Source of the DNA: a virus
IMG/VR virus record: IMGVR_UViG_3300045988_151351
Span: 128,001 to 192,000 of that record
Direction: 5' to 3' (one strand)
DNA length: 64,000 nt
The position numbers were made by a program, and so were the translations under genes. The notes below the pieces were generated by a model. It had not been told where the DNA came from. It made no database searches and saw only the letters and a list, made by a program, of their open reading frames with translations. Below are positions 24,166-62,602 of this stretch, piece by piece; position 1 is the stretch's first letter; the number at the start of each line of letters is the position of its first letter.

Positions 24166-24219
24166 CAAGATAACCCTATTGTGATACAATAGGATTATCA
24201 AAAGAAAGGAATTGATACA

Positions 24220-24354
24220 ATGGATTTAGCTATTATTATTTTAGGTGCTCTCTATCTCTGCGGGGTTAAAGTTGGCACAGCACTTGCAATCTGTGCTATT
24301 ATTGAAGGTCTTTTCATTATTATCAGTGCAATTATCAGAAAATTAAATGAATAA
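24220..24354 (+). CDS. micro-membrane protein, 44 aa
   Basis: Promoter at 24160-24197; hydrophobic. Confidence 0.4.
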   Translation: MDLAIIILGALYLCGVKVGTALAICAIIEGLFIIISAIIRKLNE

Positions 24355-24416
24355 GGGCTTGACAAACAAGCCCTATTGTGCTATAATTGATTTATCAAAG
24401 GAAAGGAATTGATACC

Positions 24417-24749
24417 ATGAATAAAAAAAATAATGAGAATTTAAAAAGAGTATTAAATCTCTTGGACGACCTTATTTCTGATGAAGTAGAAGAACGAACC
24501 GCAGAACTTGAAAAGGAAGTTTCTCATTTTAAATGTTCAAGTGCCCGATATAGGGATATAATTAAATTCCTTGTTAGAGAATCTAAACTTGATATTCCTG
24601 CTAAAACTGCCGAAGCCTTGGAAGAATTTAAGAATGCAAAAGAGTGTGATAGTAGAAATGGTTATTCTACTTATACAAGCTATACCAATCGAAAAGGTTA
24701 TGTTTATGAACAATATGAAATGATTAAAAAAATTTGTAATAGGGCTTGA
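24417..24749 (+). CDS. early small protein, about 110 aa
   Basis: Promoter at 24358-24395. Confidence 0.45.
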   Translation: MNKKNNENLKRVLNLLDDLISDEVEERTAELEKEVSHFKCSSARYRDIIKFLVRESKLDIPAKTAEALEEFKNAKECDSRNGYSTYTSYTNRKGYVYEQYEMIKKICNRA

Positions 24750-24802
24750 CAAACAAGCCCTATTGTGCTATAATAAAGACACAAAGAGAGGAGATGTAAT
24801 AA

Positions 24803-25009
24803 ATGAAACACAATAAATGGTTTGTGGCTTGTCTTGGTTGTCTGATGGTTAGCGTAGTTCTCGGCGGTTTGGGAATGATGTTGGGCGTTCTTGCCTGTGT
24901 GGCTTGTGCGGGCGGATGTTTCGTTAAGTGGCTTTTCGAAGAAGATAAATACCAGCGCGCAGAACACCAAAAATATTTGGAAAGTTTGAAAAAAGGGCTT
25001 GACAAATAA
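24803..25009 (+). CDS. small membrane protein, 68 aa
   Basis: Promoter at 24746-24783. Confidence 0.45.
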   Translation: MKHNKWFVACLGCLMVSVVLGGLGMMLGVLACVACAGGCFVKWLFEEDKYQRAEHQKYLESLKKGLDK

Positions 25010-25059
25010 CTACTTTGATGTTATAATAAAGATACAATAAAGGAAAGGAATTGATACCA

Positions 25060-25239
25060 TGAAACATTTCCATTGTCCGGTAAATGGTTGGGATTGCCCC
25101 TATTTCAAAAATGAAACGATAATCAATGGTCAGAAAGAAACCTGCATTTGTAGTCTGGAAAATCCGATGGATGACTGCGATGATTTTTACAGCATGTGGG
25201 GTGATTGCGAACCTGATGATTATACAGATGATAATTAAG
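25060..25239 (+). CDS. Cys-rich acidic micro-protein, 59 aa
   Basis: Promoter at 24996-25033. Confidence 0.4.
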
Positions 25240-25271
25240 GGGAAATTTCCCCTAGGAAAGGAATTGATACC

Positions 25272-25559
25272 ATGTTAGATAAAAATACGGAAGAAATGCT
25301 GAAAGGCATGACGGACAGTGAAATCGCTACATTGATTGGTCTTGCTTATAGAGAAAAGCAAAACAGAGATGAAGCAAAAAAAACAAAATACATGAACGCA
25401 ATTAACAAGGCTATTCAGGATTATCTGGATAATGTTGGAGATTTAACATTCCATGTTGAGTATGAAGATGAAGATGGTCAGGACGCGGAAACTGACATCA
25501 CCGTAGATAATACAAATCCGCCTGCTGGTGGTAATGGAGTTATTTATATTAAGGAGTGA
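25272..25559 (+). CDS. early small protein, 95 aa
   Basis: RBS only, no own promoter; co-transcribed. Confidence 0.45.
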   Translation: MLDKNTEEMLKGMTDSEIATLIGLAYREKQNRDEAKKTKYMNAINKAIQDYLDNVGDLTFHVEYEDEDGQDAETDITVDNTNPPAGGNGVIYIKE

Positions 25560-25636
25560 AAAAATAGCACAAGGGGCTTGACAAAGTAAGCCTCTTGTGC
25601 TATAATTGATTTATCAAAAGAAAGGAATTGATAAAA

Positions 25637-25876
25637 ATGACTCTCGGTATGATTAAAAATGTAATCGGCATTGTAAAAGGTTCGTTAATGTTTTATGATG
25701 GAAATGGTGTTGAAGTAATAAATGAAAATACCTGTGGTCGCTATCTCAAAGATCGCAAAGGCCGCATGACCTTGAATGGAGACCTTCTGGACACAAGTGA
25801 AGAATGGATGCTGGGATTACCTGTAACTGGTTTGAAAGCCAAAAATAATACCCTTATCATTTACGTTGATGGCTGA
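25637..25876 (+). CDS. early small protein, about 79 aa
   Basis: Promoter at 25576-25613. Followed by terminator 25877-25912. Confidence 0.45.
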   Translation: MTLGMIKNVIGIVKGSLMFYDGNGVEVINENTCGRYLKDRKGRMTLNGDLLDTSEEWMLGLPVTGLKAKNNTLIIYVDG

Positions 25877-25912
25877 AAATAAAATCCAGAGGGCTATGCT
25901 CTCTGGATTTTT
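25877..25912 (+). terminator. rho-independent terminator (AAATCCAGAG..CTCTGGATTTTTT)
   Basis: Hairpin plus T-run. Confidence 0.75.
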
Positions 25913-25914
25913 TA

Positions 25915-26088
25915 AAATCTATTAATTTTTCAGTCTCGCGCCCACGGTCCAAGCGCGAGGATTTTTAGATTTTAAACACATTACACAATTTTTTCGGGCA
26001 AAATTTGTGTAAAATAACAGTTGACATTTTTCCCGATACCTGTTATACTATAATTGTTCCAAGAGAGAACCAGTAAGGAGAATGAACA
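25915..26088 (+). promoter_or_regulatory. composite regulatory element E6 (hairpin CTCGCGC..GCGCGAG, promoter TTGACATTTTTCCCGATACCTGTTATACT)
   Basis: Same architecture. Confidence 0.45.
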
Positions 26089-26304
26089 ATGAAAAGATAT
26101 AGAATTACAGATGATGTTGTCGCTGATTTGTTGAACTTCTATTGCGAGGGTAAGCCTGCCGTTTGGAATTGGTTTTTTGGATGGCGCGGCGGACATTGGG
26201 ATACAAAAGGGAATCTAGTTTATTGCGATTACATTGTTTCTGATAAAATTCTGAATCAAGCAATCACATTAGCAAAAAGATTTTCCGATCGGCTTGACAA
26301 ATAA
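26089..26304 (+). CDS. early small protein, 71 aa
   Basis: RBS AAGGAGAATG. Confidence 0.45.
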   Translation: MKRYRITDDVVADLLNFYCEGKPAVWNWFFGWRGGHWDTKGNLVYCDYIVSDKILNQAITLAKRFSDRLDK

Positions 26305-26354
26305 ATAAAAATATGTTATAATAATTATACAAATTAAGAAAGGAATTGATAACA

Positions 26355-26540
26355 ATGACAATGTATAAACGGGAAGTAAAATATAAGTGGCTTTGGTGGA
26401 ATGGACGTGGTAGTTATGTTCTTTCTGATGAAACTGAATGGATGAGTGAAGAAGAAGCAAAAGAAAAGAACATCAAAACCTATGATACTGGTTTACAATG
26501 TTGTAGAGAATATGAAAGATTTATTCCGATAGAAAATTAA
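26355..26540 (+). CDS. early small protein, about 61 aa
   Basis: Promoter at 26293-26330. Confidence 0.4.
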   Translation: MTMYKREVKYKWLWWNGRGSYVLSDETEWMSEEEAKEKNIKTYDTGLQCCREYERFIPIEN

Positions 26541-26559
26541 AAAGAAAGGAATTGATACC

Positions 26560-26970
26560 ATGACTGAAATTAAGACCTATAAATGTGATTTCTGCGGGCA
26601 GGTGTTCGACGATGAAGCAGAGTGTATTCGTCATGAATGGAAATGCAGATATGAGGATCTGCGTAGAACAGAAAATTGCGAACCGCTGAAGCTGTTCGAC
26701 CTTGAAGACAAGGAAATTGAGGGATTTAATTATCCTAAATGTGATGAAATTGGTGCGATGGAAATTCATTCCTACGCTTGGGCACAATTCATCAATGATT
26801 ATTTTGATGAAATGGGTTATGAAGTTCCCATTAGAATCGTAGACGGAGAGGTTGAACGCTATGGTCTGTGGTATTATGACCCTGAATATCGCTATGGCGA
26901 GTGGCGATCTTATGAAGAAGTGCTTGAAGATATTCAGAAAATTGGAAAGAAATTTAATCAAGGGGCTTGA
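26560..26970 (+). CDS. early protein with an N-terminal C2H2/zinc-ribbon-like motif, 136 aa
   Basis: CDFCGQVFDDEAECIRHEWKC. Confidence 0.45.
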   Translation: MTEIKTYKCDFCGQVFDDEAECIRHEWKCRYEDLRRTENCEPLKLFDLEDKEIEGFNYPKCDEIGAMEIHSYAWAQFINDYFDEMGYEVPIRIVDGEVERYGLWYYDPEYRYGEWRSYEEVLEDIQKIGKKFNQGA

Positions 26971-27024
26971 CAAGCCCCTTGACCTGTGATATAATTGATT
27001 TATCAAAAGAAAGGAATTGATACA

Positions 27025-27300
27025 ATGAATAAACAGGTTATTTTCATGGACAACGAGGGAACTGTTCAGGCAGGCATCTGGAATCAGGACAGGGATGAAA
27101 TTATTTGCGGTTGTTGTGGCGCAACAATCGAATCGGGCGATTTTGTTCTGCTTCACATTTATGACGAATGGCTGAATATCACCGATGAAATCTGCGGAGA
27201 TGATGGAGATATTCTTCATGAGATTGAAGAAAAGGTTGACCGTCTGACCACTTCTGAAATTGAAGCTATTCTTGATGGAAAGAAGGAATTTAACGTATGA
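27025..27300 (+). CDS. early small protein, about 91 aa, with CGCCG..C..C
   Basis: Promoter at 26967-27005. Confidence 0.4.
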   Translation: MNKQVIFMDNEGTVQAGIWNQDRDEIICGCCGATIESGDFVLLHIYDEWLNITDEICGDDGDILHEIEEKVDRLTTSEIEAILDGKKEFNV

Positions 27301-27605
27301 AATTTCTTATTAAGGTTATCGCTAAGTGGTTCAAAGACAGAAATTGCGCGTTTGCTATTTATGGCGCGGATGGCTCATGCATTGAAAGTGCAAATACTGT
27401 ACCGGAAAAGAATTTTTTCCCACCGAAGACAAATCAAATACGGAAAAATGGTGATGATTGGTATTCATTTCCAATCAATGCCAACGGTGAATATTGCGGT
27501 TGTGTCTGCTGGCTTGAAGATACCAGCGAAGAAGCATGGATAGAATTTTACGATGTAATTAACATCTGCCAAATTCTGGAAACCGCGTGCGAAGTTGAGG
27601 AATAA
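27297..27605 (+). CDS. early small protein, 102 aa
   Basis: ATGA overlap with the preceding gene. Terminator at 27590-27625. Confidence 0.45.
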   Translation: MKFLIKVIAKWFKDRNCAFAIYGADGSCIESANTVPEKNFFPPKTNQIRKNGDDWYSFPINANGEYCGCVCWLEDTSEEAWIEFYDVINICQILETACEVEE

Positions 27606-27639
27606 ATTTCCTCAACTTTTTTCGCCTTTTTAATTGGGA

Positions 27640-28059
27640 ATTTTTGGGCGCGGCGCCCACGTATGTAAGGCGCCGAATTTCCATTATACCACCCCGCCAG
27701 CAATTTGTCAAGAGAAAAGTTATACAAAATAATCTTTTTATTTTATCCCGTTTTCGTCATTTTGCCAATAGACTTTTCAAGGGGTATCTGCTATAATACA
27801 TAATGTCAGGAGGGAATGGAGAGTTCCCAAGCGGTTAAAAAAACTTTTGGGAATTGAAAATTTCCTCTTGACAAAGCCCACACGATGTGGTATAATAAGG
27901 GTGTCAATGAGGGGCGGCTAAGTCCTGCAGGCTGAAAAAGATTTTAGAATTTTTGGGAAAAAATTCGCCAAACCTCTTGACAAGCCCCACAAAGTGTGGT
28001 ATAATCTAAATGTAATTAAGTGAAGGACACACTTAAAAAACCAGAAAGGAATTGATACT
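27640..28059 (+). promoter_or_regulatory. composite element E7 plus a triple tandem promoter-hairpin cluster, paralogous to 21140-21595 and 22835-23008
   Basis: Box CCATTATACCACCCCGCCAGCAATTTGTCAAGAG. Promoters at about 27775-27805, 27880-27910 and 27975-28005. Confidence 0.5.
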
Positions 28060-28440
28060 ATGGCTAAGACTACTTCCAAGCTGACCAAGCGCGACTACTT
28101 CAACATTCTCCGTGAAGCGTATCCGCAGACCGCGGACAACTATGACGCAGTTATCGGTTTCATCGACCATGAGCTGGAACTGCTTTCCAAGAAGAACGCG
28201 GCTGACAAGAAGCCGACTGCCACGCAGGTGGCGAACGACGGTTTCAAGACCTCGATTAAGGCGGTGATGTCCGCAGAACCGACCCGTCTGTTCACTATCA
28301 CGGAACTGATTAAGACTGTTCCGGAGATTGCCGACCTGACTAACCAGCGTGTTTCTGCTATCGTCCGGCAGATGGTAACTGATGGCACGCTCGACCGCGT
28401 TGAGGAAAAGCGGAAAGCCTATTTCCGCATTCACCAGTAA
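28060..28440 (+). CDS. family-X protein, 126 aa; paralog of 23009..23371
   Basis: See 23009. Confidence 0.5.
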   Translation: MAKTTSKLTKRDYFNILREAYPQTADNYDAVIGFIDHELELLSKKNAADKKPTATQVANDGFKTSIKAVMSAEPTRLFTITELIKTVPEIADLTNQRVSAIVRQMVTDGTLDRVEEKRKAYFRIHQ

Positions 28441-28492
28441 TTGCCAATCGGGGCGGAGCAATCCGCCCCACCCAGAAGAAAGGTGGAATTAA

Positions 28493-28897
28493 ATGGCATT
28501 AAAGGAAAAAGACAAGCAAGCGTGGATTGACAAAAATATGAAACTCATGGGCTGGACGCAGGAAGAAGCGGAAAGTGTGTGGGAAGCCGACCGCGCTATC
28601 GACAAAGGCGAACGTGTTGATTTTGACTTGTCACCAGAACAGGAAAAAGAAGCCAAAAAATATATGAACGCGGGAACGCGCAAAGTGCCGACAAATTACA
28701 AATTTGACCAGCGCAAGCGTAAAGAAAACCCGACCAAAGCCGGAATTATCGCAGAATTAGCAACTTTTTTGGCTGAAAACAGCGAAAATGCGTGCGAAAA
28801 CGTGGAAATTACAAACAAAGAGCGCATGATTGCGTTCAAAGTTGGTGAAAATTGCTACGAATTGACGCTCACGCAGAAAAGAAAGCCAAAAAGTTAA
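28493..28897 (+). CDS. family-Y protein, 134 aa; paralog of 23415..23774
   Basis: See 23415. Confidence 0.45.
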   Translation: MALKEKDKQAWIDKNMKLMGWTQEEAESVWEADRAIDKGERVDFDLSPEQEKEAKKYMNAGTRKVPTNYKFDQRKRKENPTKAGIIAELATFLAENSENACENVEITNKERMIAFKVGENCYELTLTQKRKPKS

Positions 28898-28928
28898 GAA
28901 AAAGGGCGAGAAATCGCCCTTTTTCTAA
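28898..28928 (+). terminator. rho-independent terminator (AAAAAGGGCGAGAAATCGCCCTTTTT)
   Basis: Hairpin plus T-run. Confidence 0.75.
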
Positions 28929-29035
28929 GCAAAAACTGCGGAAAAGTTAGGCTTGACAACGACTTTTTTGTATGGTATAATGTCTATACAGTTAAGGGAG
29001 CGGACAACCCAACCAACCGCAGAAAGGTAAAGCGT

Positions 29036-29683
29036 ATGTTTGAATATTTCTCCAAGGAAATCGACCAGATCGAAAGCGAAGATTTGCGAATGTTCGTTAA
29101 GTTCTATCTTGACGAAAAAGTTCCGTCCTATTTCTGGAAAATCGGCGCTTCAAGTTCTGGAAAATTTCATCCTGTTTTTTCTCAGGGTGAAGGCGGTCTA
29201 GTTCGTCATACCAAAGCCGTTTGTGCGTTCTGTGAAGAACTTTTGAGAATGTCTCAATGGGCTTACATGAAAGACGAATACAAAGACCTCGCGCGTGTCG
29301 CTTGTATTTGCCACGATACCGCAAAATACGGTTTAGCAGATTTTGACAAGGGAGAATATCCCAACCATGCCGCGAATGCCGCAAAATTGGTAGATTCTGC
29401 TTGGCGCGAATACTTTGATGAACCTGCTCCGTTTTTGCTCACGCAAGCCATTAAGTCCCACATGGGGCAATGGAGCACCGACCGCGAAGACAGACCTTTT
29501 ACAAATATTGACAGGCTTGTCCATCTTGCGGATTACATCGCTTCCAGAAACTTCATCGACATTCCTGAAATTACCAGCGACTACAATTCCACATTTTCTA
29601 ACGAAGATGACGCCGAACCGGAAGATATTGACAGCGATGAAGGCTTCGACCCTTACTCCGGCTGTTTCACCTATGACTGTTAA
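29036..29683 (+). CDS. HD-domain metal-dependent phosphohydrolase, 215 aa
   Basis: H..H...CHDTAKYG...HLADYIAS (HD motif). Promoter at 28953-28990. Confidence 0.55.
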   Translation: MFEYFSKEIDQIESEDLRMFVKFYLDEKVPSYFWKIGASSSGKFHPVFSQGEGGLVRHTKAVCAFCEELLRMSQWAYMKDEYKDLARVACICHDTAKYGLADFDKGEYPNHAANAAKLVDSAWREYFDEPAPFLLTQAIKSHMGQWSTDREDRPFTNIDRLVHLADYIASRNFIDIPEITSDYNSTFSNEDDAEPEDIDSDEGFDPYSGCFTYDC

Positions 29684-29715
29684 AAAAGAGGGCATTAGCC
29701 CTCTTTTTTTTGTTC
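29683..29715 (+). terminator. rho-independent terminator (AAAAAAGAGGGCATTAGCCCTCTTTTTTTT)
   Basis: Hairpin plus T8. Confidence 0.8.
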
Positions 29716-30086
29716 ATTTTGCCTATTGACAAATGCGGCCTGGGGTGGTATAATATCTATAGGGGATAGTTCATCGGGGCGCTGACATAGTCAAGCCCCG
29801 AATTCCCGATCTTTTATCCCATATGGAAAATTTTTGCTCAATCCAGCGGCCTCCATATGCGACCTGGTTCTCCCGAAAGTGATGCCCCCGCAGGGCGCCG
29901 ATCGGTACTATATCATATGCCCGGCATTTGACAATATTAAAAAAATTTGTTATAATATTAAAAAAAAGCATTTTTAAAGCGCGGCCCATTTAGATAATCC
30001 GCCCATTTGACATTTATAAAAAAAAATGATATAATATATTTAGAAAGTGAGAGATCACTTTACTATTAGATAAAGAGGTAACATAT
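29715..30086 (+). promoter_or_regulatory. multi-promoter region marking the transition between the two promoter families: TTGACAAATGCGGCCTGGGGTGGTATAAT, then two AT-rich TTGACA..TATAAT promoters
   Basis: Direct reading. GC-rich structured segment at 29760-29900. Confidence 0.4.
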
Positions 30087-30464
30087 ATGTTTACTAAGGA
30101 AGATATTATTGCTCGTCTTGCTAAGGGTGAGGACGCTCAGTCGATCGCAGATGAAATGGCTAAGACTCTGAATGAGGCAGTCCAGGAGACCAAGGATCAG
30201 GACAATAAGACTAATCTGCGCGCAGCTATTAATGAGAAGTCAACTGATCTTATGAATCTGCTGCTGGAGTATTTTGATGTCGATGAAACTTGTACTACCG
30301 ATGAAATGGCCAGCCTGACTGATCAGCTCCTTGATACTATTGAAGCCGTTGTGCCTCTGATTGAGGTCATTGAGAAGTATGATGATAAGAGTGCTTCTAC
30401 GCGCACAACTGCTAAGACTTCGGATAAGGTAATTTCGGACTTTTTGAAGGTATTCGTAGATTAA
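30087..30464 (+). CDS. acidic helical protein, 125 aa
   Basis: Intact ORF. Terminator at 30536-30575. Confidence 0.45.
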   Translation: MFTKEDIIARLAKGEDAQSIADEMAKTLNEAVQETKDQDNKTNLRAAINEKSTDLMNLLLEYFDVDETCTTDEMASLTDQLLDTIEAVVPLIEVIEKYDDKSASTRTTAKTSDKVISDFLKVFVD

Positions 30465-30535
30465 AACGGACACTTCTTCGGGTGGGACAATTTTCATCCT
30501 AAGAATTGGAAATCTGAATAGAAATCGAGATATTA

Positions 30536-30575
30536 AAGAGTGAAACGTTGAGTTTCACTCTTTTTTTTATTTTTA
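30536..30575 (+). terminator. rho-independent terminator (AAAGAGTGAAACGTTGAGTTTCACTCTTTTTTTT)
   Basis: Hairpin plus T8. Confidence 0.8.
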
Positions 30576-30629
30576 TTACGGTGACGATGAGGATGGATTG
30601 TTGAGATAGTTGTATAGGACCGATCGGCA

Positions 30630-30700
30630 CGACACTTCCACAATTTTCCACAATTTCCCACAATTTTCTATAGCTATCTACAATTTTCTACAATTCTTCA
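30630..30700. repeat. at least 6 iteron-like repeats of (C/T)CACAATTTTC
   Basis: TTCCACAATTTTCCACAATTTCCCACAATTTTCTATAGCTATCTACAATTTTCTACAATTCTTC. Confidence 0.7.
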
Positions 30701-30967
30701 TTATTTATTATAATTATTATAACCCACCATAATAATAACTTTTACCTTTATCTTTCTCCTACTAATCCAAATTACCTCAGACTTATAATCCAATAGAGAA
30801 GAAATTGCCGAATGCCCCTCTCAGCGCAATTAACTCTTATGAAAAATTTCTTAACAAAATCTTGACAAAAGAAAAAATTTATTATATAATATAATTACAA
30901 AGTGAGGAACAACCTCCATCCTTTCAATTTTATTCTTTCTACTACCTTACTTTGTATTACAATTAAA

Positions 30968-31003
30968 TAAAAAAAATAACCGCTATTTCAGCGGTTATTT
31001 TTT
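30968..31003. terminator. bidirectional terminator (A8-AACCGCTATTTCAGCGGTT-T10)
   Basis: Hairpin flanked by A-run and T-run. Confidence 0.75.
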
Positions 31004-31005
31004 TT

Positions 31006-31371
31006 TTATGCTAACAAATCATCAATACTCAAAGCACTATATTCTTTAATCATAGCTTCTGCGAGAGTATGCTTATCTTCCAACATACACTCATGCTTAT
31101 CATAAAGAACATCATCCATAGACTGCGGCACTACTGCGCCTTTCTTTTTAGGAGTATATCTATATTGACTTACCGACTTAATACCACCATCACGCTTGAT
31201 AGTACCAACTACAAAGCCCTTATAAACAAGTTTCATGCCATCATCATACATAATAAAGACCATATCATCACAATCTTTATAACTATAAGTAGAAAGAGCA
31301 TATACAGGCAACCCTTTATAAGTACCTACTCTTTCATTATTATCCTTTAAAGTTTCATAGCAAAATTCCAT
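31006..31371 (-). CDS. hypothetical protein, 121 aa
   Basis: Intact ORF on the minus strand. Confidence 0.45.
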   Translation of the reverse strand: MEFCYETLKDNNERVGTYKGLPVYALSTYSYKDCDDMVFIMYDDGMKLVYKGFVVGTIKRDGGIKSVSQYRYTPKKKGAVVPQSMDDVLYDKHECMLEDKHTLAEAMIKEYSALSIDDLLA

Positions 31372-31520
31372 TTCAATTTTCTCTAAGGGTCCCTTTAAAT
31401 TTTCATTTCATTTTTTTAAACGCTACTTAGACTCTGGGAGTATTACCCCTTATAAAATGAATATACCCTTACTCCTTATATATATTATAACATAATTATA
31501 AATATAAATCAAATACACTC

Positions 31521-31790
31521 TTATAACTCATCACCATATACTTCATGGTAATAATCATACATACTATACTTAGCTGTACTATATCCATCTAACCAAGCAT
31601 TAGGATTACCATCTGTATATATATTATATGTTTTCTAGCTTTCTTTACATAATGCGGTTGGATTTATATATCCAATTATTCTCTATCTATATGCTTTAAT
31701 ACCTTCATCATCATATGGATAAATACCTAAATCTAATCCTATACTCATTATTGTTGAATCACTTAATTTATTTTCATCTAATTGTATCAT
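31521..31790 (-). CDS. small hypothetical protein, about 89 aa, 2 TAG codons
   Basis: Hand translation. Coordinates approximate to within 2 nt. Confidence 0.3.
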
Positions 31791-31791
31791 T

Positions 31792-32058
31792 TTATTTCTC
31801 CTTTAATTTATCTGTTGAAAAATAATATTTATCTTCATCTATTATTTTCATATATCCACATTCAATTAAATTAATAATAGCATCATTCATAGATTTTCTA
31901 ACTGTTCTACTTTTTACTTTATAATCTATATTTAACCAATTAGCATATTCCTACGGATTTACTATCCATTCCTATTTATTATAAAAGCAACTTAAAAATA
32001 AATATAACTTTAATCCACAGTGCTTTAATTCATTTACTACTTTACCATCTATTGCCAT
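31792..32058 (-). CDS. small winged-helix-like DNA-binding protein, about 88 aa, 2 TAG codons
   Basis: Hand translation. Helix-turn-helix-like segment. Confidence 0.3.
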
Positions 32059-32189
32059 TATTATTCCTCCCTTAACTCCCTCGAAAAAAATCTTGTATAG
32101 GATTTAAATGGCCCGAAGGGACATTTAAAGCCTATACCATCCTTACTTATATTACTTATTACTTAGATAAACTATGATTTTTTACCTAA

Positions 32190-33300
32190 TTTAATACGAA
32201 GCAACTATGAAAAATTACCTAAAGTGGGTATGAAAAATTACCTAACTAAATCTTTATAATCAAAGCAAAATTTCGTCAATCGCTTCTTCTAACTTTTACC
32301 ATCAAAAAAGCTAACATAATCTATTAATTCAGAATTACATAAAAATGTTAAAGCATTATTAACAATTTCATAACCACGAGTATTATTCTCTACTTTAATA
32401 CCACTATGTTCCCCTAACTCTTTTAAAGTAAATTCATACTATGTTCCTCGTTCCAATGCCCATTTATATCTCTAACCAAGATATACATAAATCTTTATAA
32501 TATGCTCTTTACAATTATCATTTATATACTATAAAGTCTTTAATGGAATTAAAAAATATATATTCTCCATTTCAGGTAACATATATTTATCTTCTTCTTC
32601 AATAACATAACCCTACTCAATTAAATAACTTAAATGTGATTTATAAGTCTTGGGGCTTTTGATACCTAATGTCTTACATATCTAAGACTATGAAGGTAAT
32701 GATTTCTTTAATACAAAAGTTCTAAATAAATTATTATCTTTATCTATTACTTCATAAGTAGATAAAGTCTATAAATAAGCATATAACTCACCATTAATTT
32801 TTTTATCATTTAAAAAAGTAAGAACTTCCATAGTAGTATTCGCCGGAAAGCGCTTTTTATCTTCAGCCAATTTAATATTGCCTCCTTTCATACTTTATTT
32901 AAAATCTAAATAGGTAAAATTAACGATTTTTACCCAACTAAATAAAAATAGGAAACTATGAAAAATTACCTAATCAGCACTTCGGTTTCCCGATCAGTGG
33001 CTATGAAAAATTACCTAAAATTTTAAATAAAAAGAGGAACATATGAAAAATTACCTAAAAATTTTACCTAATTTATCCACTTTAAATAAAAATAGGAAAC
33101 TATGAAAAATTACCTAATTTGGTTTTAAACACTTATTTATGACCAACTAATAGAAATTTTTGACCAAAACAATAGAAATTTTTGGACAAAAATATAGAAA
33201 ATTTTGACCATTTATCAGAAAATTTTGACCATTTTCATTTAAAACGACCATTTTATATTTTTATTAGAAACTATGAAAAATTACCTAATTTAACTAAAAT
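32190..33300. repeat. dispersed repeat CTATGAAAAATTACCTAA (at least 8 copies) and AGAAAATTTTGACCA (4 copies)
   Basis: Copies at about 32206, 32229, 32952, 33000, 33042, 33097 and 33279. TTTTGACCA copies at 33150-33240. Confidence 0.75.
32238..32891 (-). CDS. HTH transcriptional regulator, about 217 aa, about 8 TAG codons
   Basis: RBS GGAGGCAATATT. Hand translation gives SQICKTLGIKSPKTYKSHLSYLIEQGYVI, an HTH-like segment. Confidence 0.4.
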
Positions 33301-48610: not shown

Positions 48611-48683
48611 TCCAAAGTGGGGTAGAGGATAGCCTATCAGAGTAAAATTCTGAAGACCGCGGTTCGAATCCGCGCTTCGGAAA
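48611..48683 (+). tRNA. tRNA-like gene with a canonical cloverleaf but anticodon loop GTAAAAT (apparent anticodon AAA); isotype uncertain
   Basis: Acceptor TCCAAAG/CTTCGGA with 1 mismatch. D stem GGGT/GCCT. Anticodon stem TCAGA/TCTGA. T arm CGCGG-TTCGAAT-CCGCG. Confidence 0.35.
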
Positions 48684-48897: not shown

Positions 48898-49542
48898 ATG
48901 AATGGATTTATTTATAAAATTACAAATGATATAAATGATAAAGTATATATAGGAAAAACTTTATCATCTATTGAGAATAGATTCAAAGAACATAAGTAGG
49001 AAAGCCAAAGAGAGTCAGAACAAATTCGACCTTTATATCGAGCAATGAATAAATATGGAAATGAGCATTTTCATATTGAAGAAGTTGAAGAATGTCCTTT
49101 AGAAATTTTATCAGAAAGAGAAAAATATTGGATAAAATATTTTTCTTCTTATGAAAATGGCTATAATGCTACAATGGGTGGCGATGGTAAATAGTTATAT
49201 GATTATGATGAAATTGTAAAAGGTTTTTTATCAGGAAAATTAATGTATGAATTAGCAAATGAATTTGAATGCTGTCAAGATACTATCCGCGCAGCTTTAA
49301 GTTTAGCTAATATAGATTCTACTATTAATGCTAATAAAAAATTAAAAAAAGGAATTATAGCGAAAGATTTAAATGGAAATGTAGTAAAGATTTTTGATTC
49401 TCGGATAGAGGCTGTTAAATGGTTACAAGATAATAACTATGTTGCTAAATCTGTCGTAAAAGATAATGTTATAGCCGCAATAGGTCGAGTAGCTAATGGA
49501 AAACGTAAAAGTGCTTATAATTTGATTTGGGAAAATTTTTAA
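48898..49542 (+). CDS. GIY-YIG homing endonuclease (I-TevI-like), about 214 aa, 2 TAG codons
   Basis: GFIYKITNDINDKVYIGKT...RFKEHK is the GIY-YIG motif. EREKYWIKYF block. ORF 49243..49542 is in frame downstream of TAGs. Confidence 0.6.
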
Positions 49543-50464: not shown

Positions 50465-50536
50465 TGCCTTATGGTGTAATGGAAACACGCCGCCCAGTAG
50501 AGGGCGGAGTCTTTGGTTCGAATCCAAATGAGGTAA
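50465..50536 (+). tRNA. tRNA-like gene with an 8-nt anticodon loop CAGTAGAG
   Basis: D stem GTGT/ACAC. Anticodon stem CCGCC/GGCGG. T arm TTTGG-TTCGAAT-CCAAA. Confidence 0.3.
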
Positions 50537-51804: not shown

Positions 51805-51878
51805 TGCGGTGGTCTTCTAACGGTAGGATACTGGGCTCATAACCCGGAGACGCGGTTCGATTCCGCCGACCGCAACCA
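51805..51878 (+). tRNA. tRNA-Met(CAT)
   Basis: Anticodon stem CTGGG/CCCGG, loop CTCATAA. T arm CGCGG-TTCGATT-CCGCC. Confidence 0.5.
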
Positions 51879-54260: not shown

Positions 54261-54626
54261 TTGAAAATATTTTATGAATCCAGTAGAAAAGAAAGTTTCT
54301 ACTGGATAAAAGCATTAGGAGGCTTTAAAATGAAATTTTATTCAGAACTGACAAAGAATTTTTATGAAAGTGAAGATGCCTGTAAGCAGGCTGAAAGTAA
54401 GTTCAATAAAGAGCTTGCTGAGAAGGAAGCTAAGGAGAAGGCTTTGAAGGCTGAACGTAAGCAGCGCGCCGAAGAGGTTAATGATGCATACAAGGCTATT
54501 AAAGAAGCTGAAAAGCATTATTGCGAACTCCGCGATCAATTTATAAAGGATTATGGTAGTTTCCATATGACATTTACTGATACTGGTAGTTTCTTCTTTG
54601 ATCCTTTCAGATTTACTATTCTGTAA
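54261..54626 (+). CDS. coiled-coil protein, 121 aa
   Basis: K/E-rich heptads. Confidence 0.4.
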   Translation: MKIFYESSRKESFYWIKALGGFKMKFYSELTKNFYESEDACKQAESKFNKELAEKEAKEKALKAERKQRAEEVNDAYKAIKEAEKHYCELRDQFIKDYGSFHMTFTDTGSFFFDPFRFTIL

Positions 54627-54789: not shown

Positions 54790-55668
54790 ATGGAGTATAC
54801 TGGATATTTTGTCAAATTTAATAATTTTGCTGCGCACCCCTCTGGAACAGGTCGTTTACATATTGATGTTTTAAGTAAATATTCTCAAGTACTTTGGGGA
54901 CAATGGCGAAATGGTATAAATCTTTTGAATGAAAAAATTCGTAAAGAAATGAATGATGTTGCACCTTTTAAGTTTTATGCTTTAGATAAATCTGTAGCTT
55001 TATTAAAAATGAATGTGACTCGAGTACTTACTCGTGAAGAAGTTATTGCAGAAAAGTTAGAATATCTTATTCCAGATTATTATAATATTGATACACCATG
55101 TTCAGCATATTATCTTATTGATAAAATTGAAATTCTACCCGTTGAATCTGCACTTAAAATAATTAATATCAATACTAAGAAGTCAATCTATGATTCAGCT
55201 CAAGTGAATAGTACGACTCCTTGGAGAGTATGTGAAATTGATAATGATTTAGGAATAGAAAATATTGTTATTCCTAGTGTAACAACTAAATCTGTTAAAT
55301 TTAATCCGCCTGTCTCTTCTGAAAATATATCTAATATTATTTCTCATAAGTCTAAAAATGAAACCTATTGTATTTATCAATATTATTCTAAAACTATGAA
55401 GAAAAGTTATATTGGCTTAACTAATGATATTAATAGGCGTAAAAAAGAACATGAAAGTCCTAGCAATTGGACGCGAGAAAAGAAAAAATATCTTTATACA
55501 GCAATGCAACTTATGGGATTAGATGATTTTGAATTCCATATTCTGCATGATAATTTGTCTGAGGAAGATGCTCATTACTGGGAAGCAAAAGAAATTGAAA
55601 ATCATCATTCTTATTTCCCGGACGGATTCAATGAAAGAAATGAATCCCGATTCTTAAAAAATATTTGA
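54790..55668 (+). CDS. protein with a C-terminal GIY-YIG nuclease domain, 292 aa
   Basis: YCIYQYYSKTMKKSYIGLTNDINRRKKEHES is the GIY-YIG motif. Confidence 0.5.
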   Translation: MEYTGYFVKFNNFAAHPSGTGRLHIDVLSKYSQVLWGQWRNGINLLNEKIRKEMNDVAPFKFYALDKSVALLKMNVTRVLTREEVIAEKLEYLIPDYYNIDTPCSAYYLIDKIEILPVESALKIININTKKSIYDSAQVNSTTPWRVCEIDNDLGIENIVIPSVTTKSVKFNPPVSSENISNIISHKSKNETYCIYQYYSKTMKKSYIGLTNDINRRKKEHESPSNWTREKKKYLYTAMQLMGLDDFEFHILHDNLSEEDAHYWEAKEIENHHSYFPDGFNERNESRFLKNI

Positions 55669-55735
55669 TTTTTTAAAAAATTTATGATATAATATATATG
55701 TAAGGTTGAGAGATAAATAATCTCTCTCTTATATG

Positions 55736-56020
55736 CCGGATTAAACAATAGTAGCTAACGATAGTTGAATAGACGGGTCGGGGCTAACATAGAAAGGTTA
55801 GCAGGTAGTGCGGCGGTAGGTAACAAATCCGCAAGTCGAAATGAGTCGGGAAAACCGAATGATACGGCTTAGATGTTTTCCTCATTTGAGGTTTGGATGG
55901 AGATTTTAGGCGAAGGATAACAACCTTTGACTGCCATCTTGTAAAGCGACCATGAAACCGGGTCATAGCTACCATGCTATTGTTTATTTTTAATGTGCGG
56001 GTTTAAGTCCCACCACTAGT
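55736..56020 (+). ncRNA. structured non-coding RNA candidate, about 285 nt, expressed from a duplicate of the tRNA-Leu(TAA) promoter and leader
   Basis: Promoter and leader at 55660-55745 are near-identical to 54075-54152. First 10 nt TATATGCCGG are shared with the tRNA. No ORF. Ends with a T-arm-like GCGGGTTTAAGTCCCAC. Confidence 0.35.
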
Positions 56021-56039
56021 ATTAAATCTATCCCTTTAG

Positions 56040-56116
56040 CTTAGTGGAATAAAGCGCGTGGCTACGAACCACGAGACCGGGAGTTCGAGTCTCTCAAGGG
56101 ATGCCATGTGGCTGTA
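56040..56116 (+). tRNA. tRNA-Arg(ACG)
   Basis: Acceptor ATCCCTT/AAGGGAT. D stem GCTT/AAGC. Anticodon stem CGTGG/CCACG, loop CTACGAA. Confidence 0.55.
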
Positions 56117-56117
56117 G

Positions 56118-56193
56118 TTCAGTTGGTAGAACGTCTGATTGTGGCTCAGAAGGTCGTGGATTCAATTTCCACCAGTCACCCCATATGCTCTCG
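56118..56193 (+). tRNA. tRNA-His(GTG)
   Basis: Acceptor GTGGCTG/CAGTCAC. Anticodon stem TCTGA/TCAGA, loop TTGTGGC. Confidence 0.55.
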
Positions 56194-56196
56194 TAG

Positions 56197-56335
56197 CTCA
56201 ATCGGTAAGAGCCGGCGACTTATCCAAGATTAGTTTAAATGGTAAAATAGTCTATGCGCAAGAAAGATGTAAGTTCAAATCTAACATCTTGGGCCAAATC
56301 GCCAGATGTGGGTTCAAGTCCCGACGGGAGCACCA
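56197..56335 (+). tRNA. 139-nt tRNA with an insertion of about 79 nt in the anticodon loop; the insertion is itself tRNA-like
   Basis: Outer acceptor GCTCTCG/CGGGAGC, D stem GCTC/GAGC, anticodon stem GGCGA...TCGCC. The insert is bounded by CCAAGAT/ATCTTGG (7/7 bp) with D-arm GTTT-AAATGGTA-AAA and T-arm GTAAG-TTCAAAT-CTAAC. Confidence 0.4.
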
Positions 56336-56703
56336 TTAACCAACAAGCCTATGGCGACAACTCTAAGCTCAAACCGTTGGTTTTCTGAACAAACGAATAA
56401 AAACCTTTCGTTCTAAGACCTAAAGTACGAAGCAGGGTGACAACCTCCAGAAATGGGACTTAGTTTTGGGTTAAAGTTGAGCGTTTATTATAAATTGATC
56501 TCGTCAATTAATTTTTAATAAATGCGATTTTTTATGCAAAAGTAGTCAAGAGGTTTAAGACCCCAATCTGCAAAACTGTGTGACTCTTTGGGCGTGGGTT
56601 CGAATCCCGATGGGAGCACCATAAGGCATAAACAGCAAATAATTAAATATTTTGCCATTTTCTTTTAAGCGAATGACGCACCATTTTATTATGCCTAGTA
56701 TAT

Positions 56704-58080: not shown

Positions 58081-58155
58081 ACTGGTGTCGCCAAGTGGGA
58101 AGGCACAGGACTTTGACTCCTGTATTCGTTGGTTCAAATCCAACCACCAGTGCCA
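58081..58155 (+). tRNA. tRNA-Gln(TTG)
   Basis: Acceptor ACTGGTG/CACCAGT. Anticodon stem CAGGA/TCCTG, loop CTTTGAC. Confidence 0.55.
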
Positions 58156-58652: not shown

Positions 58653-58727
58653 TGAGGGGTAGCATAGCGGCAAATGCGCCGGTCTCTAAAACCGGATAAG
58701 TGGGGTCGGCACCCACCCCCTCCGCCA
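58653..58727 (+). tRNA. amber suppressor tRNA-Sup(CTA), 75 nt, canonical cloverleaf, with glutamine-like identity
   Basis: D stem GCAT/ATGC. Anticodon stem CCGGT/ACCGG, loop CTCTAAA (U33, C34 U35 A36, A37). T arm GTGGG-GTCGGCA-CCCAC. Acceptor (T)GAGGGG/CCCCTCC with unpaired 1:72, G73 and CCA. Confidence 0.7.
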
Positions 58728-59740: not shown

Positions 59741-59769
59741 GGAGAGTGTTTTAATTGGCTGATGTTTAT

Positions 59770-60993
59770 ATGAATTCAAAATTCTATTTCAAGCGTGGTA
59801 AAGCCGCGTCTTGGACGAAATAGAATATATTATTAGGTCCTGGCGAGCCTGGTTTTGAATTAGACACTGGTAAATTAAAAGTTGGCAATGGTGTTGATAA
59901 ATGGAATGATTTACCTTATATAGTAAATAAAGATACATTACCTGATGAAATTGTTTATTATATTGGTAAGCAAGATACTCTTCCAGAAGAAGGAACAGAT
60001 GGTAGCATTTGTATTGTTGGTGAAGATATTTATATTCGCGCCAATGATAAATGGACGAAATTAAATACTACTGCTAAAGGTGAAATTGAAGTTATTAAAA
60101 TTAAAGGTAATAATGATGGTAGTTTAGAAATTGATGGTAAAAAGTATGATACTATCCAAGAGGCACTAAAAAATGTAACAAATGCCGAAGTCGCACTACC
60201 AACTGAATTAACAGAAAATCTTACCATTTCCGCAGGTCAAACTATTACTTTAGATTTAAATGGTACTAATACTGTTACTGATTAGGTCAATCCTCTTCAA
60301 ATTGCTTATAACGGTTCTCTTATTATACAGGGAGATGGCACTGTTGAATGTAATAAGAATGGCGCAGCAAGTATAGAGAATAATGGCACCTTAAAAATTC
60401 TTAATGGTGTCATCTCTCGATCTATTGACGAAAAAGGTAATGGATACTATGTAGTAGTTAATCATGGATATACAACTATTGATGGAGGAATTTTCACATC
60501 TCCCGGTGGTATGTCGAGTTTAATTGAAAATGGTTATTATAATTATAATTCCAATCTTGCTTCTACTGGATATGTTGAAGGACAAAATGTTCAAAGTCCA
60601 AAATTAACTATTAATAATGGATTATTTATAAATGATTATACTACAATTAAAAATGATGATAATGGTGAAACATTTATAAATAACGGTCAATTTTATGGTA
60701 TGATTTACCACGTTGGACGTACTCTTGATATTAAAGATGGATATTTTAATGCTAGTGATGGCTATGAAAATATTCAAGTAAAGAAATTAAGTCAAAATTT
60801 AAATTGCGCTGATTGTTATATTAGTGGCGGCACTTTTGAGACTAATGGTTCTGTTAATATTACAGGGGCAGGTAATCCAACAATTATTATTACTGGTGGA
60901 AAATTTAATAAAAAAGTTCCTGATAAATATATCGGGAAAGGTTATACTTAGACCTTAATTGATGGTTATTATACTATAACTAAGGAGGGATAA
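59770..60993 (+). CDS. tail fibre or receptor-binding protein, about 407 aa, 3 TAG codons
   Basis: N-terminal FKRGKAASWT.N..LG.GEPGFELDTGKLKVGNGVDKWNDLPY motif is a conserved tail-fibre N-terminal block. Frame continues through TAGs into ORF 60511..60951. Confidence 0.55.
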
Positions 60994-60995
60994 TA

Positions 60996-61364
60996 TTGGC
61001 TTTTAATGTTGTTTATGCTGATAAAAATAAAATTAAAAGTAGTATTACACAAAATATTATTCCTAAAGAAAGTTTAATCTTAACTGCTTAGGATGATAAG
61101 CAATCAGAATCATACTATTATGATGATGAAGGTAATTTAAAATTTATTACCAAAAAAACTACTTTTAATTCTAAAATTGAAGCAAGAACTTGGATTGCTA
61201 GATACGGCAATTATCAAGGAGAAATAATTTCAATTTATTAGAATAATTCTTACGTTCCGTTTTTAGTAAATAATAATAATGAGTTAGTTCCTCTTCAAAC
61301 TGGAGAAGAAGAAACTGCTGATTTTAATATTATTGATGGCGGAGCGGCCAATACTAATTATTAA
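60996..61364 (+). CDS. hypothetical tail-associated protein, about 122 aa, 2 TAG codons, TTG start
   Basis: Hand translation. Confidence 0.3.
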
Positions 61365-61381
61365 TTAGGAGGAAACAATTT

Positions 61382-62602
61382 ATGGCTGAAAAGACATTAA
61401 AAACTCGTATTTTATTACGCAATGACAGTGCCGCAAATTGGGAAGCCAATAAAACAACTGTCCTGAAAAAAGGCGAAATTGGCATTGAAATTGATACTAA
61501 TAAAATGAAAATTGGTGATGGTGTAACTGCTTATGGTAACTTAAAGTACTTTGGCGGTGAAGCTGCACTTAATTTTGAAGTATTTCCAAAAGGCGAAACA
61601 ACTGATATTGAAGCGATTAACGCGGCTGTTGGTGATACTGAGATTCACAATGGTGATACTGCTATTGTAAAACGTGATATTGCTGGTGGTAAATCTTCCT
61701 ATACCGCATATGTTTATGATGGCGAATGGAAGGCTATGGATGGCAATTATCGTGCTGATAATGTTTATTTTGATGAAGATCTAATTTATACTGCTAATAT
61801 TGGCGTAAAGACTGTTCCTAGTTCTGGTTCTGGTACTATTGATGCTGCTGGTAAGAATGTTGAAGAAGTTCTTAAATCTATTCTCGCCGCTGAAAAGAAT
61901 CCTAGTAATACAAAACCTTCTGTTTCTTTTAGTACTCAAAGTGGTTTTGGTACTTTCGAGATTGGTACTAAGAAGAATTTGACTTATACTGCTGCTCTAT
62001 CTGCTGGTAGTTATACCTACGGTCCTGCTACAGGTATTACTGCTCAGTCTTGGGAAGTTAGTTGTACTGGTGTTGAAGGTTCTAAGGATACTGCTACTGG
62101 CACTTTTGAAAACGTAATTGCTGAATCTACGGCTAAGAAGATTACTGCCAAGGCTAACTATAATGAAGGTGCTATTCCTAAGACTAATCTTGGTAATCCT
62201 TATCCTAATGCTAAAATCGCAGCAGGGAGTGCTTCTAAAGATTCTAATTCTTTGATTGGTGTTCGTCATATGTTCTATGGTGTTCTTAAATCTGATGCCG
62301 TTCTTGACAGTAGTGTTATTCGTAGATTAAATCATGAAGCTGCTGATAAAAAGACTATCACTACTTTTGGAGCAGGTGCTGGAGCAGTTAAAGTTGTCAT
62401 TGCTTGTCCTGCTGGATATAATGTAACTAAGGTTCTTATGCCTAGTGCTATGAATGCTGATGCTACTGCTAACTTTGTAAAACAAGCTGGCACTGTTAAT
62501 GTTGAAGGTGCTGAGGGCTACACCGCAGTTCCTTATACTATTTGGATGTATAAACCAGCTTCAATTGATGCCAGCGAAACTTATGCTGTCACAATTGGTT
62601 AA
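61382..62602 (+). CDS. tail fibre protein, 406 aa, TAG-free, with the same N-terminal motif
   Basis: TRILLRNDSAANWEANKTTVLKKGEIGIEIDTNKMKIGDGVTAYGNLKY. Confidence 0.6.
   Translation: MAEKTLKTRILLRNDSAANWEANKTTVLKKGEIGIEIDTNKMKIGDGVTAYGNLKYFGGEAALNFEVFPKGETTDIEAINAAVGDTEIHNGDTAIVKRDIAGGKSSYTAYVYDGEWKAMDGNYRADNVYFDEDLIYTANIGVKTVPSSGSGTIDAAGKNVEEVLKSILAAEKNPSNTKPSVSFSTQSGFGTFEIGTKKNLTYTAALSAGSYTYGPATGITAQSWEVSCTGVEGSKDTATGTFENVIAESTAKKITAKANYNEGAIPKTNLGNPYPNAKIAAGSASKDSNSLIGVRHMFYGVLKSDAVLDSSVIRRLNHEAADKKTITTFGAGAGAVKVVIACPAGYNVTKVLMPSAMNADATANFVKQAGTVNVEGAEGYTAVPYTIWMYKPASIDASETYAVTIG

Follow-up and report, generated by a model that had tools for sequence, protein, structure and literature searches.

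A tRNA-Ile(UAU) gene with a tRNA-shaped, intron-like insert in the anticodon loop in an SPbeta-like gut phage

Introduction

To our knowledge, introns in the transfer RNA (tRNA) genes of bacteria and phages are generally thought to be solely self-splicing group I introns, which interrupt cyanobacterial tRNA-Leu(UAA) and tRNA-fMet. Archaeal and eukaryal tRNA introns are marked by a bulge-helix-bulge motif, are excised by the EndA/Sen endonuclease and have their exons joined by the RtcB or Trl1 ligase; such an intron is typical of eukaryal tRNA-Ile(UAU) genes. We know of no bacteria with this splicing endonuclease. Here we describe a tRNA-Ile(UAU) gene whose anticodon loop is split by a 73-nucleotide (nt) tRNA-like insert. 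The gene occupies positions 56187-56335 on the plus strand of the window, that is, the whole analyzed stretch of 64,000 nt (positions 128,001 to 192,000 of the IMG/VR virus record IMGVR_UViG_3300045988_151351). Judging from sequence comparison, we assign a probability of roughly 40% to the reading that the insert is a mobile, protein-free, tRNA-shaped intron that would be cut out by RNase P and RNase Z and sealed by a ligase.

The closest precedent is provided by the "enigmatic" tRNA introns of the Lak megaphages, for which no mechanism was proposed (Devoto et al. 2019, Nat Microbiol; PMC6784885). The intron of the Lak tRNA-Thr(TGT), according to the same authors, "may itself encode a tRNA" (PMC6784885). 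The literature that we searched contains no mechanism for the Lak introns, unexplained in 2019, and full-text searches returned no account of introns that have a tRNA shape and are processed by RNase P and RNase Z. The Lak inserts resemble the present ones in their location in the anticodon loop, next to the anticodon, of tRNA genes from TAG-recoded gut phages. They are identical across cohorts yet missing from some close genomes, and polymorphism between close genomes is observed here as well. Table S6 of the Lak study shows an acceptor-like helix and a T arm at the end of each of the introns in the Thr, Phe, Gly, and Tyr tRNAs, and a tRNA-like element is likewise present here. However, the Lak introns are 79-141 nt long and start with a 25-30-nt 5' hairpin leader after exon 1, so that no RNase P site is located at their 5' junction, whereas in the present phages a bare tRNA-like unit running from +1 to CCA abuts exon 1, in the tRNAs for Ile, Lys, Gln, and Thr. 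On our reading of Table S6, the Lak introns appear to end at the discriminator without CCA, as expected for tRNA genes that do not encode it. Because the Lak tRNA genes lack CCA and their tRNA-like part seems to end at the discriminator, these ends would fit processing by RNase P and RNase Z. The Lak phages have Prevotella hosts and genomes of about 540 kb, whereas the phage considered here is SPbeta-like and of about 200 kb, and comparison of the inserts by eye showed no sequence similarity beyond the T-loop consensus. The gene in the window appears to be a related case of different design, found in another phage lineage and in other tRNAs, and in a minimal form that suggests a mechanism.

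Group I introns, too, are mobile and polymorphic, reside in the anticodon loop of bacterial-type tRNAs, and are often accompanied by homing endonucleases; a passage of PMC13011429 places them in tRNA-Asn and tRNA-Asp of Patescibacteria. They differ in exceeding 200 nt and having a P1-P9 ribozyme core, whereas the present inserts are tRNA-shaped, span 58-73 nt, and match no group I model. With archaeal and eukaryal introns the inserts share small size, the absence of encoded proteins, and the position in the anticodon loop, and with eukaryotes even the isoacceptor; removal by protein enzymes followed by ligation is also what we propose here. The canonical site in archaea and eukaryotes is 37/38, whereas here it is 36/37 or 35/36, with no bulge-helix-bulge, and the chemistry expected of the cut ends, a 3'-OH and a 5'-phosphate, differs as well.

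Results

Structure of the interrupted gene

The nested gene comprises 149 nt including the terminal CCA. The Rfam tRNA model (RF00005) recognized the outer tRNA at 56187-56332 with 41.4 bits (gathering score 29) and 76 nt inserted in the anticodon loop. The original prediction, based on the letters of the stretch, was of a tRNA whose anticodon loop is interrupted by a tRNA-like insert, and matches of the model to both the outer and the inner unit bear it out. Its dimensions need revision: the tRNA begins at 56187 and not at 56197, a position that falls within the D stem; the anticodon-stem strands GGCGA (56214-56218) and TCGCC (56299-56303) are separated by 80 nt instead of about 90; and the inserted unit has 73 nt (56224-56296) instead of about 79.

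The 5' exon (37 nt, 56187-56223), delimited by sequence reading in agreement with uninterrupted tRNA-Ile(UAU) alleles, contains the acceptor 5' strand GCTCTCG (56187-56193), the D arm (56196-56212), the anticodon-stem strand, and loop nucleotides 32-36, CUUAU (56219-56223), with the anticodon UAU at 56221-56223. The 3' exon (39 nt, 56297-56335) starts with loop nucleotides 37-38, AA (56297-56298), and continues through the second anticodon-stem strand, the variable region AGAT, the T arm (56308-56324), the acceptor 3' strand CGGGAGC (56325-56331), and the discriminator A (56332) to CCA (56333-56335). The anticodon loop of the gene thus has 80 nt, not 7, and reads CUUAUAA only once 56224-56296 is removed. 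By inspection, the window exons carry every element of what we take to be the E. coli-type tRNA-Ile identity set (A73, C4-G69, U12-A23, C29-G41, A37, and A38). ARAGORN in default mode does not call the gene; with introns allowed, it reports 56187-56335 with a 73-nt intron.

For the insert searched alone, a score of 35.6 bits (E=1e-6), above the gathering score, was obtained with the tRNA model at 56224-56293. The perfect 7-bp helix that had been predicted to close it is formed by CCAAGAT (56224-56230) and ATCTTGG (56286-56292), and is followed by a discriminator G (56293) and CCA (56294-56296) that had escaped notice. The D and T arms that had also been predicted are both present, at 56233-56248 (GTTT/AAAT stem) and 56269-56285 (GTAAG-TTCAAAT-CTAAC), the T stem with one A.A mismatch. 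The insert runs exactly from tRNA-like position +1 to the encoded CCA. Encoded CCA is also found in other tRNAs of the phage, such as tRNA-Arg (56030-56106) and tRNA-His (56108-56183).

The anticodon arm of the insert is replaced by a short hairpin (56251-56267) with one A.A mismatch and the loop GCGCAAG, which contains a GCAA tetraloop, and the variable region has at most 1 nt. Because an anticodon stem with a 7-nt loop carrying U33 and an anticodon is absent, the inner unit cannot be a decoding tRNA. Of the suggested "nested tRNA pair", the tRNA shape of the inner member stands, and its role as a second decoding tRNA does not.

No group I intron (Intron_gpI, at E up to 10) or other Rfam family was matched within the insert. 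Reading of the junctions revealed no bulge-helix-bulge, i.e., no two 3-nt bulges with a 4-bp helix between them. Both junctions lie in a single internal loop, with 5 nt on the 5' side and 6 nt (GCCA and AA) on the 3' side, that connects the outer anticodon stem to the 7-bp inner helix.

Boundaries of the insert and uninterrupted alleles

Uninterrupted tRNA-Ile(UAU) genes were found in five viral contigs (L101, L106, L115, L116, and L117). They share the D arm, the anticodon arm, and the variable region with the window gene (...GAGCCGGCGACTTATAATCGCCAGATGTG...), the anticodon arm being identical. Alignment to these alleles leaves one clean 73-nt gap, CUUAU/AA. The insert is therefore placed between nucleotides 36 and 37, since this is the only register compatible with an uninterrupted tRNA-Ile(UAU) product. 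ARAGORN instead reads tRNA-Trp(CCA) and places the intron three bases leftward, which is ruled out by the same alignment and by discriminator A73. For window-type exons, the predicted junction is GGCGACUUAU joined to AAUCGCC in the RNA (...GAGCCGGCGACUUAU joined to AAUCGCCAGAUGUGGGUUCAAGUCCCGACGGGAGC); exons of this type were not found uninterrupted in any DNA examined.

The alternative offered by the original prediction, an intron-like element in the tRNA of a bacterial virus, fits this comparative evidence: the window is of phage origin, intron-less orthologs with the same anticodon arm exist, and deletion of 56224-56296 yields CUUAUAA. The intron-like reading is in this way partly supported.

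Conservation and covariation

Exact-word scans of IMG/VR, ENA, and Logan metagenome assemblies and one metagenome-assembled genome found the nested gene at 17 loci besides the window. Altogether there are 12 distinct sequences from at least 18 independent assemblies. A chance or assembly artefact is excluded by the 17 further independent loci together with the covariation.

The sequences combine two very different exon sets, type 1 (GCTCTCG...) and type 2 (GGGGTCG...), with two insert variants whose acceptors start with CCAAGAT and CTAAGAC. Of the Ile identity elements listed above, the type-2 exons keep only A73 and C29-G41. In an alignment of 11 of the 12 distinct sequences, 92.9% of the cells agree with the pairs of the nested cloverleaf; shifting the 3' partners by 1-3 columns lowers this share to 33-52%. 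Both partners changed at nine pairs; the outer and inner acceptor stems account for three each, and the D, anticodon, and T stems of the outer tRNA for one each. In the L155 variant, all additional changes are compatible with wobble pairing. Covariation of the outer stems between the exon types may predate the insertion.

Within each exon type, every difference is in a loop or is pairing-neutral, and no stem-breaking mutation is seen in the 12 distinct sequences; in type 1, the differences all fall in the D loop or T loop or keep pairing via G.U. The inner sequence is more conserved than the exons, and its GCGCAAG loop is invariant.

Inserts in other tRNA genes

A search of about 1.5 Mb of phage DNA, by ARAGORN with introns allowed and by a structural scan, revealed three more insert families: (i) 58 nt in tRNA-Lys(UUU) of L004, L020, L124, and L155, with the 3' end ACCA and 33.0 bits as a tRNA; (ii) 66 nt in tRNA-Gln(UUG) of L125, with the 3' end GCCA and 38.6 bits; and (iii) 65 nt in tRNA-Thr(UGU) of L116, with the 3' end ACAA and 37.1 bits. 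Empty alleles were identified for Lys (L001) and Gln, and none for Thr. The empty tRNA-Gln(UUG) allele is in the window itself (58081-58155, plus strand): its exons are identical to those of L125 at 72 of 75 positions, and the two differ by a clean 66-nt indel between 58114 and 58115, corresponding to nucleotides 35 and 36.

All three inserts retain the 7-bp acceptor stem together with the D arm and the T arm, the latter with a UUCAAAU loop. The anticodon arm is reduced to a 3-bp AAUA hairpin or is gone, as in the Lys insert, leaving 1-4 unaligned nucleotides where the tRNA model expects 11-15. Removal of the inserts restores canonical loops, CUUUUAA in Lys, CUUUGAC in Gln, and CUUGUAA in Thr, and the ARAGORN calls of Met, Pro, and Glu for the Lys, Thr, and Gln cases were rejected on the same grounds as the Trp call. 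The Lys insert, found in two exon backgrounds, has an acceptor stem with two compensatory changes. In three of the four insert families, the nucleotide at -1 is a U.

The four families are alike only in generic features of the tRNA top half. The inserts keep those parts of a tRNA by which RNase P, RNase Z, and the CCA enzyme recognize it, which in the Ile insert are the acceptor stem, T arm, D arm elbow, and NCCA, and they have lost the part used by the ribosome and synthetases. The structural scan yielded just these four families and a few ordinary tRNAs with chance flanking complementarity. Neither it nor the exact-word scans found a free-standing insert copy.

Mobility and exchange between lineages

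For both Ile and Lys, the same insert is observed in two unrelated exon backgrounds. In close relatives of the window phage, with flanks 90-99% identical, the nested gene is of type 2 and is found about 400 nt downstream of the corresponding position, immediately behind an open reading frame (ORF) for an HNH endonuclease; this ORF ends 3 nt before the nested tRNA-Ile (10101-10697 in L123 and 4850-5446 in L125). The nested gene of the window is 96% identical to that of a more distant lineage. These patterns indicate that the nested-tRNA cassette has been exchanged between lineages.

At the site occupied in the close relatives, the window retains a tRNA 3'-end remnant (GTGGGTTCGAATCCCGATGGGAGCACCA; 56593-56622, plus strand) with a T arm, an acceptor strand, and CCA, identified by blastn against L128 and L132. 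It resembles the 3' end of the outer tRNA and marks the nested tRNA-Ile site of the close relatives; it has no tRNA model match. The whole segment 56336-56622, which consists of about 260 nt missing from the close relatives followed by this 30-nt remnant, is probably a recombination scar. Within it, 56538-56592 has the look of a D arm and an over-long anticodon arm, with no 5' acceptor strand and no tRNA model match.

The tRNA array of the window contains two free-standing GIY-YIG homing-endonuclease ORFs (48898-49542 and 54790-55668), one of them with a weak PUA-like N-terminal match. On the basis of presence/absence polymorphism, shared inserts across exon backgrounds, and adjacent homing-endonuclease genes, the inserts appear to behave like mobile introns.

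Phage context and local neighborhood

The window encodes portal and terminase proteins and homologues of the SPbeta Yon/Yom structural proteins, and the carriers of the nested gene can be classified from sequence as SPbeta-like, TAG-recoded human-gut phages of about 200 kb, the host probably being a Firmicute. No close relative was found among cultured or GenBank phages; the best terminase identities are about 62% (one human-faecal contig) and 52% (Enterococcus phages). In the late and structural genes (1-13000, minus strand), ORFs lengthen and pack tightly if TAG is read as sense, with 40 in-frame TAG codons compared with 6 in early genes. A tRNA with the anticodon CUA is at 58653-58727. Because TAG aligns with CAG in a relative, glutamine is suggested as its meaning.

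The tRNA array occupies 48.6-58.7 kb of the plus strand, with 25 ARAGORN calls. Odd members are found at 50465-50536, 48611-48682, and 51806-51874: one is an ARAGORN call whose anticodon has four bases (gtag), one a tRNA-Phe with AAA as its anticodon, and one a tRNA detected by Rfam only (47.9 bits). AUA, the codon that would be read by tRNA-Ile(UAU), is a minor codon (11% of Ile codons).

A strong sigma-70-type promoter (55665-55693, plus strand; TTGATT, 17-nt spacer, TG-TATAAT) probably drives a RAGATH-33 RNA, tRNA-Arg, tRNA-His, and the nested tRNA. In the L004 group, the nested gene has its own promoter, which is kept. The RAGATH-33 RNA is full-length (55754-55866; 137.9 bits, gathering score 120.4) and is located downstream of the strong promoter and a small hairpin and upstream of the three tRNA genes; it is present in close relatives and absent from the loci of the L004 group. 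A near-identical promoter of about 45 nt, TTGATTTT(A/T)TAAAAAAT..TGATATAATATATATG, recurs at no fewer than 17 sites of the window, in the early region and the tRNA array (e.g., 48534, 49562, 40478, 55655, 54068, 44215, and 33320), and a 31-mer of it pulls related phage contigs from IMG/VR. Directly 3' of the nested tRNA, 56339-56382 matches the abiF RNA motif weakly (25.8 bits, gathering score 37); this stretch is a hairpin ACCAAC...GTTGGT followed by TTTTC and may simply be a terminator.

Two further regions of the window deserve mention. Several paralogous tail-fibre-like proteins with an Mtd N-terminal domain, a mark of targets of diversity-generating retroelements (DGR), are encoded at 59755-62602, as in L134 (8389-20000). 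At 15000-33000, long ORFs are sparse under every stop-codon assignment tried and many short ORFs overlap on both strands; this region may hold many small early genes or non-coding RNA.

RNA-repair genes in related phages

RNA-repair enzymes were found to be encoded in several related contigs. L142, whose flanking genes match window ORFs at 38-43 kb, encodes RtcB. An RNA ligase in which an OB-fold domain (PF21189) precedes the ligase domain is encoded by three contigs: L156, which has the promoter consensus; L140, which has this consensus and, in addition, genes in common with the window group; and the related contig L167. L151, again with the promoter consensus, encodes a Thg1-like enzyme. More generally, related large gut phages carry a module for RNA repair and salvage of nicotinamide adenine dinucleotide (NAD), seen at 228-1424 of L142, 494-1765 of L156, 6712-7629 of L151, and 10001-21206 of L157, and in L167. 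Its members are RtcB, the OB-fold RNA ligase, a Thg1-like 3'-5' polymerase, an RNase T-like exonuclease, NAMPT/NAPRTase, NAD synthase, a metallophosphatase, and major-vault-protein-like proteins. L154 has a gene for a class-I release factor.

Among the ORFs scanned, none encodes an EndA/Sen splicing endonuclease. A KEN/RNase L-type nuclease was considered at 54261-54626, where the match is weak and sub-threshold and falls in a Lys/Glu-rich, probably coiled-coil stretch; it was treated as spurious.

Discussion

A possible splicing route

The intron reading can be formulated as a sequence of steps. The precursor would fold into a cloverleaf within a cloverleaf. Host RNase P would cut at the 5' end of the insert, after U36 (between 56223 and 56224), so that the 5' exon ends in a 3'-OH, and RNase Z or a different 3'-end endonuclease would cut directly after the CCA of the insert (between 56296 and 56297), leaving a 5'-phosphate on A37. 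The exons, held together by the outer acceptor and anticodon stems, would then constitute a tRNA whose anticodon loop is nicked once. Sealing of this nick by an ATP-dependent RNA ligase of the phage or the host would produce an AUA-reading tRNA-Ile(UAU), and the 73-nt tRNA-like RNA would be released. At the DNA level, the insert would spread between tRNA alleles by recombination, probably promoted by the homing endonucleases encoded in the array.

Four facts appear most informative here: (i) the ends of the insert are those of tRNA maturation, (ii) its own helix seems to be under selection, (iii) the design recurs in four tRNAs, and (iv) the exons are intact. The sequence prerequisites for RNase P and RNase Z are present in the insert, namely the 7-bp acceptor, the T arm with the UUCAAAU loop, NCCA, and U at -1, the base preferred by RNase P at this position. 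A nicked anticodon loop with a 3'-OH and a 5'-phosphate is a substrate of Rnl-type ligases. In phage T4, cleavage of an anticodon loop by PrrC is followed by repair with Pnkp and Rnl1. As in our proposal, a phage RNA ligase seals a single break in the anticodon loop, although the T4 enzymes repair damage by a host nuclease and do not remove an encoded insert; no Rnl1 homologue was identified in this phage in a scan of the window and 10 kb beyond each of its ends. A tRNA-like processing signal is also known from the MALAT1 mascRNA. Mitochondrial "tRNA punctuation", as outlined in a passage of PMC3790967, relies on tRNA elements within a transcript that are recognized by RNase P and RNase Z and define the ends of the flanking RNAs. 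In both of these cases the flanking RNAs are distinct products that are not joined again, whereas here they are halves of one tRNA and ligation would be needed. Cleavage of CCA-containing precursors directly after CCA has been described for RNase Z of T. maritima, for two archaeal enzymes, and, less efficiently, for the B. subtilis enzyme; in T. maritima it was observed for 45 tRNAs (PMC7479834).

Several observations weigh against this route. The ligase is its weak point: no RNA ligase was found among about 50 larger ORFs scanned in the window and its 10-kb surroundings, in a phage of about 200 kb, and among the best 120 matches of each of two homology searches, the RtcB and RNA ligase of the relatives were not linked to any nested-tRNA genome. 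CCA strongly inhibits B. subtilis RNase Z in the presence of Mg2+ (PMC7479834), and the host is probably a Firmicute. The Thr insert terminates in CAA, not CCA. The restoration of a normal loop on clean removal carries no weight for splicing, because any pure insertion has this property, and the covariation events are drawn from few independent lineages. Finally, the predicted free energy of the tRNA-like fold of the Ile insert is -4.0 kcal/mol, compared with -13.7 kcal/mol for an alternative fold with two hairpins; RNAalifold favors the alternative, and the observed substitutions tolerate it too.

In the alternative fold of 56224-56296, ATCTT pairs with AAGAT just 5' of the T stem and not with the 5' acceptor strand. 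Since the substitutions in relatives are compatible with both folds, a conformational switch in the Ile insert is possible. Thermodynamic folding fails as support for the nested cloverleaf in this insert, the alternative being favored by about 10 kcal/mol, whereas with the Thr and Lys inserts it recovers the cloverleaf-like shape.

Other explanations

Among the competing explanations, the one that survives best, although we consider it unlikely, is that only the inner RNA matters. The 73-nt tRNA-like RNA would be released by RNase P and 3' trimming, and act, for example, as a decoy or cofactor for a tRNA-binding enzyme or a defence nuclease, while the outer halves would be a discarded structured carrier. 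The compensatory changes that keep the inner acceptor stem, and the stronger conservation of the inner sequence compared with the exons, are in line with such a role. The invariant GCGCAAG loop with its GCAA tetraloop suggests a specific contact, RNase P cleavage is expected for any fold of this kind, and no ligase turned up among the scanned window ORFs. However, the fact that the four families share only generic top-half features argues against one specific cellular target. No free-standing copy came up in the exact-word and structural scans, and the inserts always adjoin the anticodon of a tRNA whose exons are free of stem-breaking changes.

The same intact exons, in 12 distinct sequences, speak against a less likely explanation, in which the gene is dead. 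Here the insert would be a selfish tRNA-like sequence residing in accessory tRNA genes, and no functional tRNA-Ile would be produced. It may have entered a broken anticodon loop first as RNA, to be copied back by a reverse transcriptase, and would persist by destroying the target sites of homing endonucleases. The mature tRNA-like ends, from +1 to CCA, are those expected of a ligated-in RNA. The window itself has Mtd-type DGR targets; no reverse transcriptase was seen in it, and one is encoded in other large gut-phage contigs (L157), near an RtcB about 60% identical to that of L142. The tRNA may be dispensable, AUA being a minor codon, and presence/absence polymorphism is observed as well. Yet selfish DNA with no role at the RNA level has no need of the compensatory changes that keep the acceptor helix of the insert, and in the L004 group the gene has kept its own promoter.

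Still less probable is splicing through a cyclic phosphate, in which some endonuclease of the phage or host would leave a 2',3'-cyclic phosphate and a 5'-OH, and RtcB would join the exons, as in archaeal and animal tRNA splicing. The ligase is at hand in L142, with its flanking genes shared with the window, and RtcB is widespread in other large gut-phage contigs, beside the RNA ligase and a Thg1-like gene. The window, however, encodes no RtcB. No endonuclease candidate turned up, the sub-threshold KEN-domain match at 54261-54626 being the sole hint; the junctions have no bulge-helix-bulge; and the boundaries coincide exactly with the sites of RNase P and RNase Z, which give other end chemistry. 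Last, an unprocessed 149-nt double-L-shaped RNA acting as such (a regulator, a decoy, or a platform resembling transfer-messenger RNA) is very improbable, even though both cloverleaves are conserved together and a more stable alternative fold of the center exists, because RNase P ordinarily cleaves tRNA-like folds whose flanks are free within an internal loop, so that this RNA should not survive intact, and the same design in four tRNAs with unrelated inserts does not suggest one composite function.

Implications

If the intron reading holds, excision would need only the universal RNase P and RNase Z, since the intron is nothing but the top half of a tRNA, and a ligase that seals a nick would be the sole further requirement. 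We tentatively suggest, as a possibility well worth considering but short of an even chance, that these inserts constitute a third kind of tRNA intron beside group I and bulge-helix-bulge introns, a mobile, protein-free tRNA "top half", and that this kind also explains the Lak introns. Because standard finders miss nested genes (ARAGORN in default mode) or, once introns are allowed, assign them to other amino acids (Trp, Met, Pro, Glu), the tRNA repertoires of phages are under-counted.

In summary, the window gene shows the phenomenon in its simplest form, an intron that is exactly one tRNA-like unit, which leads to a concrete model amenable to laboratory experiments. If true, this model would mean a new splicing pathway made from housekeeping enzymes and a new class of minimal mobile element, and it would offer a reason for the presence of RNA ligases, RtcB, and Thg1-like repair enzymes in large phages.

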